Shown here piece by piece: positions 12,513-16,922 of a stretch of 24,000 nucleotides of DNA. Both the position numbers and the translations under genes were made by a program. The notes under the pieces are model-generated. The model made no database searches. It worked only from the letters and a program-made list of their open reading frames with translations, and was not told the DNA's origin. Each line of letters opens with the position of its first letter. Within the stretch, counting starts at the first letter, position 1. Location of the stretch: the NCBI GenBank assembly GCA_019057375.1, contig DXJF01000114.1, positions 23,787 through 47,786 on the forward strand, read 5' to 3'. This DNA comes from Candidatus Heimdallarchaeota archaeon (GTDB lineage Archaea; Asgardarchaeota; Heimdallarchaeia; Heimdallarchaeales; Heimdallarchaeaceae).

Positions 12513-12535
12513 TGGTGGGGCAGGGCGGATTCGAA
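12513..12535 (-). pseudogene. 3'-terminal fragment of a tRNA (T loop, T-stem 3' strand, acceptor 3' strand, discriminator, CCA); proposed 3' half of the disrupted tRNA-Val
   Basis: The reverse complement reads TTCGAAT-CCGCC-CTGCCCC-A-CCA. The acceptor strand is identical to that of the intact tRNA-Val at 14549-14657. No complementary T-stem 5' strand follows, so this is only a fragment. It sits in the loop of a 6-bp hairpin (aggagt 12508-12513 / actcct 12539-12544). Confidence 0.65.
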
Positions 12536-12586
12536 TAGACTCCTTTAAAATGAGGGAAAGGAAGAGTTTTAAGATTGAACGGTAAA

Positions 12587-14542
12587 ATGTACGAGATGAA
12601 AGAGCAAAGAATTCTAGTATTTATTCTGGTATTCTATCTTACTTTAAATGTAAATATAATTAAAGCCAATAGAACTGATACTTTTCTCTTAACAACCACA
12701 AACACCTCTATTCAGGATAATAAAGCATCAACAGTAAGTCAAACCAGTTCATTGTTCATAGATGATGACTCTGATTTCATCACACTTAACTTCCCTGGAA
12801 GTGGAACAAAAGGTGACCCCTACTTAATTGAAAACTATCAAATCATCACCACTGGTAGAGAAGCAGGTATTGATATTCAGAATACAAGTAAACATTTCAT
12901 TATTAGAAATTGTACTATTGAAACTGACAGTTGGGGTATTCGACTAAATGAAATAGCTCCTAATACAGCATCAATCATTGATAATGAGTTCATAGATAAT
13001 GATTATACAGCTATATCCATCTACAATTCAATTGGAGTTACAATTTCCAATAATAAATTCAAAAATAATGACGAAGCATTATACTTAAGGAAATCTAGTT
13101 TCTTAACTATATCTAACAATACGTTTGAAGAGAATTGGCATGGTTTGCTCACATCTGGAACTGATTCATTAATTATAGAAGACAACTTTTTCTATTCAAA
13201 TGTAATTGCAATAAGCATTACAGCAGTTACTGGTTTTTGTATCAAAAATAATGTTTTTAAAAATAATTCCAGATACGGAATGAATCTATATGCAACAGAC
13301 AACACACTGGTTTCGAATAATACATGCAGTGATAGTGGATGGCGAGGAATCCTAGTTCGTCAGTCGATGTTTGTTGTTTTAAACCATAACACTCTTACTA
13401 ATGATGGTATCCACATTGATTATTACTCGGTAGAATATGGAAGTTTTTCAAATAATCAAGTCAATTCTAGAATTCTTGGATTTTTCAAAAATAAGAATGA
13501 CTTAGAACTAAAAGACCCAATTTATGGTCAGTTAATTTTGTCAGACTGTAAAAAGGGAACCATTTCTAATCAAAATCTCTCAAACACAAGCATTGGTATA
13601 ACATTGTACAATTGTGAGAAGACCACCATAATAAATAGTACTTGTAACAATAATGACGGTGATGGAATCCAAATTCATAATTCTGATGGATGTTCAGTGA
13701 GTAATAACACTTGCAATAATAATGATAATGGGATCAGTGTTGTAAACTCAAATCATTGTAATGTATCGAATAATATCTTACTTGGGAATTGGGAGAGCAT
13801 AGAATTAACAAAATCTAACTCAGCAGAAATTAATCTAAACAAATGTTCATTTAACAAAAACCATGGAATAACAATAATAAATTCCGAATATGGATTTGTA
13901 ACTAATAACAATTGTTCAGATAATCATAACGATGGAATTCGAATACTAAGTTCAAATTATTTCGTGATTGCTAACAACTCGTGTATAAATAACAGAGAGG
14001 AGGCAATTTACTTAATAACAACTATTGTTTCTATTGTTTACAATAATCTCTGCAAAAATAACACAAACGGGATATACATCGGACATTCAGGATTTAGTCC
14101 TATTCCTGAATTTGTACCCCCACCTCCAGATTCATATTCGGAAGTAATTTCTAATCATCTTGAAGAAAATAGTAAATATGGAGTTTATCTTAATCGACTG
14201 ACTCAGGATAACAGCATACATCATAATTCCTTCATTAATAATGGTGAGGAAGGAATAGCACAAGCTTATGACACAGGATATAGAAATACTTGGTTTGATA
14301 AGAAGACAAATGAAGGTAATTTTTGGTCTGATATGGGGACCGGATCTTATGAAATTGCAGGAGAAGCAAATTCAATCGACAAATATCCGCTAATGGAACC
14401 CAAAATGATAGAAATGCCGGAAATTCCATCAAATTGGCCAACTTACAGAACTAAATCTAATCCACAAATAATATGCATAGGAATAGTGACATTAGTTATT
14501 CTGAAACGTAGAAAATTAAGATTTAAAAGAAGAAAAATCTAA
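12587..14542 (+). CDS. Secreted/anchored right-handed parallel beta-helix (PbH1 / NosD-CASH-like) repeat protein
   Basis: Signal-like N-terminus MKEQRILVFILVFYLTLNVNIIKA. There are more than 15 repeats of about 22 aa of the I-x-N-N-x-h-x-x-N-x-x-x-G-I type (e.g. CNNNDGDGIQIHNSDGCSVSNNTCNNNDNGISVVNS). C-terminal TM helix plus basic tail: IICIGIVTLVILKRRKLRFKRRKI. The start is ambiguous: TTG 12575, ATG 12587 or ATG 12596. Confidence 0.85.
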   Translation: MYEMKEQRILVFILVFYLTLNVNIIKANRTDTFLLTTTNTSIQDNKASTVSQTSSLFIDDDSDFITLNFPGSGTKGDPYLIENYQIITTGREAGIDIQNTSKHFIIRNCTIETDSWGIRLNEIAPNTASIIDNEFIDNDYTAISIYNSIGVTISNNKFKNNDEALYLRKSSFLTISNNTFEENWHGLLTSGTDSLIIEDNFFYSNVIAISITAVTGFCIKNNVFKNNSRYGMNLYATDNTLVSNNTCSDSGWRGILVRQSMFVVLNHNTLTNDGIHIDYYSVEYGSFSNNQVNSRILGFFKNKNDLELKDPIYGQLILSDCKKGTISNQNLSNTSIGITLYNCEKTTIINSTCNNNDGDGIQIHNSDGCSVSNNTCNNNDNGISVVNSNHCNVSNNILLGNWESIELTKSNSAEINLNKCSFNKNHGITIINSEYGFVTNNNCSDNHNDGIRILSSNYFVIANNSCINNREEAIYLITTIVSIVYNNLCKNNTNGIYIGHSGFSPIPEFVPPPPDSYSEVISNHLEENSKYGVYLNRLTQDNSIHHNSFINNGEEGIAQAYDTGYRNTWFDKKTNEGNFWSDMGTGSYEIAGEANSIDKYPLMEPKMIEMPEIPSNWPTYRTKSNPQIICIGIVTLVILKRRKLRFKRRKI

Positions 14543-16808: not shown

Positions 16809-16892
16809 GGGACCCATTCAAACGACGGTTAAATAGCCTCTGCAAGTTTAACCAAGTTTCATAACGTGCGCCGACTTCCTCCACGTCAAGGA
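16798..16892 (+). ncRNA. Candidate omega-RNA (reRNA) 3' scaffold plus guide. Only the 3' part is delimited; the true 5' end probably lies inside the tnpB ORF
   Basis: Nested inverted repeats: cgcacgt 16798-16804 pairs with acgtgcg 16864-16870, enclosing ggttaaa 16827-16833 paired with tttaacc 16847-16853. The structure spans the tnpB stop codon and ends 0-2 nt from the tRNA break. This is the expected location and geometry for a TnpB guide RNA. Confidence 0.35.
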
Positions 16893-16922
16893 GGTATCAT
16901 AGCCAGGCTAGATCACTGCCCC
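16869..16922 (-). pseudogene. 5' portion (nt 1-52) of an intronless tRNA-Val(GAC), truncated in the T stem
   Basis: The reverse complement reads GGGGCAG-TG-ATCTAGCCTGGCTATGATA-CCTCC-TTGACGT-GGAGG-AAGTC-GGCG and then diverges (CACGTTATG...). Over positions 1-48 it differs from the intact copy only by one D-loop base, position 37 and the intron. GGCG is complementary to the CCGCC of the fragment at 12513-12535. Confidence 0.8.

Follow-up and report, generated by a model that had tools for sequence, protein, structure and literature searches.

The window analysed here, a 24,000-nucleotide (nt) stretch of the Candidatus Heimdallarchaeota archaeon contig DXJF01000114.1 (assembly GCA_019057375.1, positions 23,787 to 47,786), contains a tRNA-Val(GAC) gene, referred to below as allele A, that lies in two minus-strand pieces some 4.3 kb apart. 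Between the pieces are found a gene for a right-handed beta-helix protein, a second and complete tRNA-Val(GAC) gene (allele B) and a copy of an insertion sequence (IS), assigned below to the IS607 family, that encodes a TnpB-like protein. A PALP gene lies on the side of the 3' piece and a gene for an 871-aa LVIVD/ABC permease on the side of the 5' piece. The features of the locus, in window coordinates, are as follows.

12513..12535, minus strand: orphan 3' fragment of allele A, comprising the T loop, the T-stem 3' strand CCGCC, the acceptor 3' strand, A73 and CCA (tRNA nt 54-76 plus CCA)
12535..12536, no strand: left junction GGATTCGAA/TAGACTCC, non-canonical, with no IS left end
12587..14542, plus strand: gene for a 651-aa NosD/right-handed beta-helix protein with a C-terminal hydrophobic tail; TATA-like box at about 12545-12551
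14549..14657, minus strand: replacement tRNA-Val(GAC), allele B, with a 5' exon of 39 nt (14657..14619), an intron of 31 nt (14618..14588) and a 3' exon of 39 nt
14658..14718, minus strand: promoter/upstream block of allele B, a diverged direct repeat of 16923-16984 (74% identical)
14719..14732, no strand: filler of about 14 nt without homology to the related loci L086 and L080 (see below) or to IS copies
14733..14864, plus strand: degenerate 3' remnant of tnpA and a conserved tnpB promoter-like block (TTTATCGAGTTTAAAAACCATTTTG, about 14833-14859); homology to tnpA-less and full IS copies starts here
14865..16808, plus strand: tnpB, 647 aa, in an open reading frame (ORF) that opens at 14856; predicted TnpB/Cas12f fold
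16760..16870, plus strand: conserved IS right end with an omegaRNA-like scaffold, ending in CAAGTTTCATAACGTG followed by CG
16869..16922, minus strand: 5' fragment of allele A, nt 1-52, identical to nt 1-54 of the L080 gene string
16923..16990, minus strand: orphan promoter/upstream block of allele A, collinear with the region upstream of the L080 tRNA-Val gene (95% identity)

Read on the minus strand, the 54-nt piece 16922..16869 is GGGGCAGTGATCTAGCCTGGCTATGATACCTCCTTGACGTGGAGGAAGTCGGCG and the 23-nt piece 12535..12513 is TTCGAATCCGCCCTGCCCCACCA. The initial annotation had proposed that they are complementary halves of one intronless tRNA-Val(GAC) gene, cut between nt 52/53 and 54 with the loss of at most 1 nt and without target duplication, and that an uninterrupted site should be sought in relatives. 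ARAGORN called a tRNA-Val(GAC) when the two pieces were joined, with a T stem of 4 bp as found or 5 bp with G53 added, and made no call for either piece alone. Contigs carrying the locus were then retrieved through orthologues of the neighbouring permease, and the predicted empty site was found in L080, a sister lineage in which the permease is 96% identical at the amino acid level and both flanks are approximately 95% identical to the window at the nucleotide level. Positions 9575-9652 of L080 hold an intact, intronless 78-nt tRNA-Val(GAC) gene that contains both window pieces verbatim, the 3' piece as its last 23 nt, with exactly one G between them. The gene occupies the same position as in the window, coming directly after the PALP gene and before the LVIVD/ABC permease gene. 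Since both pieces occur in L080 separated by a single G, the segment 12536..16868 is an insertion: relative to the empty allele these 4,333 nt are extra, a single nucleotide (G53) has been lost and the target is not duplicated, as had been proposed. The CG at 16869-16870 is ambiguous, being tRNA nt 51-52 and also the conserved terminal core dinucleotide of the IS right end.

An A-type tRNA-Val is usual at this locus, being present in five further lineages (L084; L088; L091-93; and L081, with a T-loop intron). The L081 gene (permease 69% identical; region 9400-10010, minus strand, gene at about 9590-9700) is unusual in that its intron of approximately 31 nt lies in or just after the T loop, a non-canonical position: GGCGGTTCAAAT is followed by the intron TTTGTTTACTTGCGAGTAAACAACTGAAAGT and then by CCGCC. 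Its precursor folds with a z-score of -4.7 and ARAGORN misses the gene. In the window, ARAGORN at default settings and Rfam at gathering thresholds reported no tRNA at all, because of the 31-nt intron in allele B and the break in allele A. The arrangement is not an assembly artefact, since a second public assembly, L094 (JGI Ga0326341_1000001, a 221-kb contig), is 100% identical over 13.9 kb with all junctions included.

We examined the IS part of the insert by comparison with its relatives. The TnpB family to which the window protein belongs is represented by 119 proteins in the protein database and by 77 loci in GTDB genomes. Nearly all of these come from Heimdallarchaeota, with several copies per metagenome-assembled genome (MAG), often at contig ends. 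Across the 77 loci the mobile unit is 2.1-2.7 kb long and carries neither a tRNA nor a beta-helix gene. Full copies have, upstream of tnpB, a tnpA of approximately 200 codons whose product combines a MerR helix-turn-helix (HTH) domain with a serine recombinase domain, the same gene being found in more than 15 loci; the L022 protein scores 1.9e-13 for MerR and 1.3e-21 for Resolvase in Pfam, and 163.8 bits against a cutoff of 110 for the NCBIfam model transpos_IS607. The ends of the element could be defined precisely. On the left, the flank runs into AC(C/T)GTAG in 32/32 copies, and on the right 47 copies are conserved up to the last base of CAAGTTTCATAACGTG(C/T)G (that is, GTG followed by a core YG), after which the flanks diverge, starting with T in 46 of the 47. 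The core dinucleotide is the same at both ends in 19/20 complete copies (CG in 12, TG in 7). Neither terminal inverted repeats nor target site duplications are seen, and the empty sites in L040 and L080 hold AC-CG once. A search for empty/filled pairs among the 77 loci gave one clear pair independent of the window, in which L011 carries the element where the orthologous L040 sequence (TGACCGTTA) has AC-CG-T once, and one pair too diverged for use (L035/L061). In the IS607 scheme the two ends and the target have a 2-bp core in common, and insertion does not duplicate the target (PMC6188088). On the tnpA profile score, the lack of inverted repeats and duplications, and the 2-bp core common to left end, right end and target, the sequences place the Heimdall elements in the IS607 family. 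An IS605-like interpretation, with a target-adjacent motif (TAM) at 12535, was dropped once full copies had shown a serine recombinase tnpA and AC(YG) ends. One locus, L003 (about 8785-10880, minus strand), has two copies of the family in opposite orientation within 4 kb; the flank of one of them starts with C (GTGCG/CT), the sole exception to the T rule besides the window.

The TnpB-like gene noted by the initial annotation is real. The Pfam model Cas12f1-like_TNB gives the protein 22.9 bits, below its cutoff of 26.3, and a profile of 18 family members searched against the PDB retrieves Cas12f/TnpB chains, with an E-value of 8e-8 to 8hr5. A search with an AlphaFold2 model (mean predicted local distance difference test score, pLDDT, 74.5) in Foldseek returned Cas12f/TnpB structures for the whole top 20 (E-values down to 1.6e-8), the best matches being Cas12f, the TnpB proteins of ISFba1 and ISDra2, and Fanzor2. 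The intact ORF is therefore predicted, from profile and structural model, to encode a protein of TnpB/Cas12f fold. D438, E537 and the four cysteines of the zinc ribbon (CxxC..CxxC) are invariant in the family. The RuvC-III motif reads NTH-NAA-NI, so that H622 replaces the Asp of the NAD-NAA seen in 8hr5; the His is invariant in the family. Branches with a conserved Asp to His change in RuvC-III have been described for archaeal, serine recombinase-associated TnpB and are presumed active (PMC10691335).

The initial annotation had the 3' end of tnpB abutting the break. The ORF in fact ends at 16808, and it is a 62-nt conserved non-coding right end that abuts the tRNA fragment. The right-end region of approximately 110 nt forms two hairpins with compensatory changes in 32 copies, consistent with an omegaRNA scaffold. 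At the right junction the window reads CATAACGTG-CG-CCGACTTCC (GTG-CG-CCGAC) and the empty site GGATTCGAAC-CG-CCGACTTCC (GAAC-CG-CCGAC). Judged by these alignments the junction is canonical for the family, with target AC/CG and core CG; the target ACCG is the reverse complement of tRNA nt 51-54 (C-G-G-T). We also scanned metagenome contigs for the exact right-end/tRNA junction CATAACGTGCGCCGACTTCC; only a GC-rich chance match (L090) was returned, and the scan did not return the L094 contig, which contains the pattern. The orphan promoter of allele A (16923-16990, minus strand) is still directed into the right end and is antisense to it. A transcript from this promoter would be antisense to the omegaRNA scaffold and the 3' end of tnpB, and might have a regulatory role. 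On the opposite strand, a 108-aa ORF (16866-17192, plus strand) runs across the tRNA 5' fragment and its promoter. No protein family matches this ORF, which is probably spurious.

The other end of the element is missing. Homology to other copies starts at about 14733, a point that in the tnpA-less copy L004 is 177 nt in from its left end, and approximately 100 nt of the 3' end of tnpA are left. A left-end profile that finds at least 35 left ends in other family loci found none anywhere in the window (nhmmer). By these alignments, the IS part of the insert spans only about 14733-16870 (2.1 kb) and is truncated on the left; of what an autonomous copy requires it has the right end, and lacks the left end and tnpA. 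A pseudo-left end at 12536, suggested by the resemblance of TAG/TAGAC, was rejected as too short a match to count. The initial annotation had treated the whole 4.3 kb as a single TnpB element with a surface-protein gene and its own tRNA, of which further copies might be found elsewhere. This view is not supported, given the size of the mobile unit, the missing left end and a cargo that is homologous to the locus itself; no copies of the 4.3-kb segment were found at other loci, L094 being the same locus.

The homology of the cargo is seen by comparison with L088, where the locus has an intact A-like tRNA-Val gene with a beta-helix gene immediately next to it. Window positions 12536-14718 are collinear with the resident order of beta-helix gene, tRNA-Val and promoter in L088 (75% nt identity). 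The beta-helix protein (Pfam NosD 9e-44, Beta_helix 1e-42) is 69% identical to the product of the L088 gene and 93% identical to that of a gene in the same place in L086; tblastn hits near other IS copies were only 27-45% identical and uninformative. The upstream-region alignment puts the allele B promoter (GTTATC..., TATCGG) closer to more distant lineages than to L080. Because L088 is collinear and the B promoter resembles that of more distant lineages, the alignments identify the left 2.2 kb as DNA from the homologous locus of a divergent Heimdall lineage, and not as part of the IS.

Allele B is the intact tRNA-Val recorded by the initial annotation, which gave its T stem (GCAAG/CTTGC) correctly and overlooked a 31-nt intron at the canonical position 37/38. 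The gene encodes CCA, and was detected only with the intron option of ARAGORN (-i). Its minimum free energy precursor fold is a cloverleaf with an intron hairpin (z-score -2.9), from which splicing is predicted only. The 3' exon and intron are also present in L086. The promoter and 5' part of allele B (14620-14718) form direct repeats with those of allele A (16885-16984), 74-95% identical. The T arm of allele B (GTCGCAAGTTCGAATCTTGC, window 14571-14590) is identical over 20 nt to that of a Heimdall tRNA-Asn(GTT) (L064 4889-4908), and on this match tRNA-Asn(GTT) is a possible source of the B-type T arm. Neither the B-type tRNA nor the TnpB family turned up in scans of viral contigs.

At the left junction, where the window reads GGATTCGAA/TAGACTCC, the empty site reads GGATTCGAA-C-CGCCGAC, and L088, a relative of the donor type, has CTTCTAATAG in place of the window's ATTCGAATAG. 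This short match suggests that the join at the T loop arose by microhomology-mediated illegitimate recombination. The motif AGGAGTC upstream of the 3' fragment was considered as a decayed tRNA variable region and rejected, since it lies in the beta-helix promoter region and is followed by neither a D nor an anticodon arm.

The same left junction is found, without the IS, in L086. The order there is PALP gene, orphan 3' fragment, GGATTCGAA/TAGACTCC, beta-helix gene, an intron-bearing tRNA-Val and the permease gene, and the tRNA 5' fragment is absent along with the IS. The occurrence of this junction without the IS counts against the single-element view of the initial annotation. The L086 tRNA is chimeric: its upstream region and nt 1-17 (with C17) are A-type, and from A37 on it is B-type, including the intron and the GCAAG/CTTGC T stem. 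The upstream region matches copy A at 53/62 positions and copy B at 44/62. These patterns indicate that L086 derives from a window-type allele by one recombination between the tRNA direct repeats, in which the 5' fragment was deleted along with the IS. Descent in the opposite direction is impossible, since the B-type promoter and T17 of the window are missing from L086.

We regard as probable, and hold with moderate confidence, a history in which an IS607-type right end was joined into tRNA-Val A, with foreign locus DNA on the left, and the resulting allele was later resolved in L086. The ancestor would have been as in L080, with the PALP gene, the intronless tRNA-Val(GAC) A on the minus strand and the ABC permease gene. 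An IS607-family element would then have had its right end linked to the antisense strand of the T arm at GA-AC/CG/C, one mismatch from the family target (motif AC, core YG, T), in a junction of the form made by the serine recombinase of the family. The beta-helix gene and tRNA-Val B with 60 nt of promoter, from a divergent lineage, would have been joined at the T loop (TTCGAA versus TTCTAA, then TAG) at the cost of 1-3 nt, and the other side of this foreign DNA fused through the filler of approximately 14 nt to the IS interior, whereby the IS would have been stripped of its left end and of almost the whole of tnpA. Either of two routes could have formed the left side: (a) canonical insertion of the IS, after which the left-end junction broke and DNA of a foreign allele was captured, or (b) use by the recombinase of just the right end of an incoming fragment, the other side being sealed by end-joining. 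The product would be a fixed, non-autonomous composite that can no longer transpose and may have been kept because it supplies a working tRNA-Val(GAC). If the H622 variant is active, the composite could also cut empty A alleles, which would favour its retention or its copying by homologous repair. In the L086 lineage, later recombination between the direct tRNA repeats would have removed the IS and the 5' fragment and left the chimeric tRNA and the orphan 3' fragment.

Several points weigh against this history. The left junction is just 1-3 nt from the position expected for a canonical left-end junction, and the insert starts with TAGAC where the left end starts with TAGTC, so that a single concerted insertion of a pre-formed composite through a pseudo-left end is conceivable. 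The core at this target is followed by C, as opposed to T in 46/47 copies. A tRNA-Val A interrupted by a complete IS was seen in no allele, and no donor lineage with a B-type tRNA-Val, or with a B-type promoter beside the IS, was found. The rescue argument presupposes that B is the only tRNA-Val(GAC) gene in the genome, and activity of a TnpB with His in RuvC-III is a presumption only.

The IS family and its relatives are found beside tRNA genes elsewhere. Another Heimdall MAG (L038, 4100-7010) provides a second, independent case of the architecture in the window: a tRNA(CAT) 5' fragment (about 4108-4137) with its promoter, a 102-aa ORF, a complete two-intron tRNA(CAT) (4626-4760), some 190 nt and an IS that lacks its left end. 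The tnpB of this copy is in two ORFs, and its right end abuts TGCCCCACCA, a duplicate of the tRNA 3' end, at the target GC/CG/T. More distant TnpB subfamilies (37-47% identity) almost always adjoin a tRNA gene, in 11 loci: tRNA-Asn in L056, L061, L064, L068 and L076, tRNA-Cys in L057, L059, L062 and L069, and tRNA-Ser in L048 and L078. In L056, L061 and L064 the common unit comprises only promoter, tRNA-Asn, tnpB and right end, and the flanks are unrelated. After the right end in L056 and L061 comes GGATTCGAAC-ACAGCGGCGCCA, a 3' remnant of tRNA-Asn whose T stem is unlike that of the adjacent functional gene.

We next considered whether the whole of 12536-16868 could be one TnpB-associated element, with a surface-protein gene and a substitute tRNA, that was inserted or homed as a unit. 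This would account for the fact that the window and the empty allele differ by just one block of 4,333 nt, against which both tRNA pieces lie, for the canonical right junction and break points 1-3 nt apart, and for the TAGAC start of the insert, and both L038 and the tRNA-Asn subfamily likewise show a full tRNA by tnpB and a tRNA remnant after the right end. Nevertheless, the window has no left end and no tnpA, the 77 family loci have a smaller unit without such cargo, no second composite copy lies at another site, the cargo is collinear with DNA resident at this locus in L088, and the expected junction AAC-CG-TAG is not seen. We therefore consider a single element unlikely.

The arrangement in L086 raises a different possibility, namely that two unrelated events occurred, in which an older, island-type gain of the beta-helix gene and a new tRNA 3' part left an att-like remnant, as in L086, and an IS-bearing A allele was later recombined in, the break points being close by chance. 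L086 does resemble a classical tRNA island in having a complete tRNA gene, cargo and a 23-nt 3' repeat with 20/23 identities, and the region between PALP and tRNA-Val is hypervariable, with 0-3 genes. However, Pfam finds no integrase domain in any ORF of the insert and the broken gene has not been rebuilt, in agreement with the initial annotation, which had seen no integrase-type rebuilding at the junction. The T-stem 5' strand of B would not pair with the swapped 3' strand, and break points 1-3 nt apart would be expected by chance only rarely (approximately 5%). The B-type promoter and T17 prevent derivation of the window from L086, whereas L086 can be derived from the window type by one deletion. 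Two unrelated events thus appear improbable.

A more far-reaching proposal follows from the sequence beside the right end. In characterised IS607 elements the target motif doubles as the TnpB TAM (bioRxiv 10.1101/2023.11.20.567912). The predicted guide position in the window is 16871-16890 (plus strand, CCGACTTCCTCCACGTCAAG), directly after the right end, and in L080 the same 20 nt follow GGATTCGA-AC-CG. By IS607/IS605 TnpB rules the guide would be CCGACUUCCUCCACGUCAAG, antisense to tRNA nt ~50-31. Intact allele A, as in L080, offers ACCG and a 20/20 match. Allele B has ACTT instead of ACCG and matches only guide positions 2-14 (13 nt), and is predicted to escape the guide because its T stem differs and the intron interrupts the match. 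The composite might on these grounds act as a TnpB-guided allele-replacement cassette that cuts the intact intronless tRNA-Val(GAC) at ACCG plus 20 nt and is copied in by homologous repair together with the IS remnant and the resistant replacement tRNA; more broadly, this TnpB clade might habitually reside in or beside tRNA genes (Val, Met, Asn, Cys, Ser), next to guide-divergent tRNA copies. We put this forward as a speculative proposal that is rather improbable as it stands. If true, it would supply direct evidence from nature that tRNA genes are protected against RNA-guided mobile elements by their introns and by variation in the T stem.

A metagenome assembly chimera of two strain haplotypes and a repeated IS would be favoured by the multi-copy nature of the family, which often ends contigs, and by the natural occurrence of L080-type and L086-type haplotypes, but is very improbable given the independent JGI contig, a right-end/tRNA junction that is novel and impossible to obtain from L080 and L086, and the divergence of the window from both by approximately 5%. 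That the pieces form a functional split tRNA, or a tRNA with a giant 4.3-kb T-loop intron, is scarcely credible: the 5' piece does retain its promoter and the L081 gene does have a T-loop intron, but G53 is missing, inspection revealed neither leader/trailer complementarity (16868..16820 against 12600..12536) nor a bulge-helix-bulge at the junctions, the insert holds opposite-strand genes and a complete second tRNA-Val, and L086 has lost the 5' piece entirely.

The surroundings of the tRNA are themselves variable. The stretch from PALP to the tRNA-Val 3' end (window 12500-12590 and equivalents) is empty in L080 and L084, and holds a kinase gene and genes for two proteins of approximately 600 aa in L081, genes for two such proteins in L091, and genes for a 580-aa protein and the beta-helix protein in L088. 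Its contents suggest a hot spot, downstream of the tRNA, for genes of surface proteins. On the other side, the window permease (871 aa) has an N-terminal LVIVD beta-propeller part (window 17368-18277) that is shared by L080, L081 and L084; the 587-592-aa permeases of L086, L088 and L091-93 lack it, a domain-level indel that adjoins the tRNA locus.

Three natural allelic states of one locus are thus available, empty (L080), filled (window and L094) and resolved (L086). Under the IS607 right-end history they would display, base by base, how an IS607/TnpB element broke an archaeal tRNA gene, how a foreign allele rescued it and how recombination later reshaped the result, and the end state of that recombination, a chimeric intron-bearing tRNA with an orphan fragment, mimics an integrase footprint. 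The Asgard IS607/TnpB family gains defined ends, a target motif (AC-YG-T) and a predicted guide. Randau and Soll are said to have suggested, in 2008, that tRNA genes are shielded from mobile elements by their introns and by variation in their sequence, and the locus is a concrete test case for this idea. A related population-level model has been published (PMC3293823).

The element is not of a new kind; it is its natural history that is unusually complete. Like IS607 and CboIStron, the full Heimdall relatives have a MerR-HTH/serine recombinase TnpA upstream of tnpB, no terminal inverted repeats, no target duplication and a 2-bp core in left end, right end and target, with a short target motif including the core 5' of the left end, and a structured RNA region that runs from the 3' end of tnpB to the right end and is followed by a variable flank in the guide position. 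They differ from known IS607 elements in their core and motif (YG and AC-YG-T as opposed to GG and TGGG), in the large TnpB (approximately 645 aa, with a long helical N-terminal half and His in RuvC-III) and in their heimdallarchaeotal host, and the window copy differs further as a dead-end remnant, without left end and tnpA, fused to non-IS DNA. TnpB-mediated homing and retention of IS605/IS607 elements was reportedly described by Meers et al. in 2023. The window resembles such systems in that the right-end flank guide matches the empty site by the target motif (bioRxiv 10.1101/2023.11.20.567912); in contrast to them, the predicted guide would target a tRNA gene and the repair unit would include 2.2 kb of non-IS DNA with a resistant tRNA. 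Integrase-type tRNA islands and proviruses of the pNOB8/SSV type share the tRNA gene as their site, and the L086 end state mimics such an island. Here, however, there is no integrase, the tRNA is broken and not restored, a functional tRNA is encoded by another, complete gene that has a promoter of its own, and the orphan repeat has a different T stem. A close parallel in a natural population is the heterogeneous tRNA-Thr(GGU) locus of Caldiarchaeum subterraneum (Sugahara et al. 2012, PMC3293823), which also combines a tRNA 5' fragment, a multi-copy insertion sequence of approximately 1.9 kb and a full tRNA of the same identity with more introns. In that case the encoded 271-aa protein is unclassified, the ends are undefined, the mechanism is conjectural and no empty site matching both fragments was reported, whereas at the Heimdall locus the element family, the target motif, both tRNA fragments and three allelic states are resolved.

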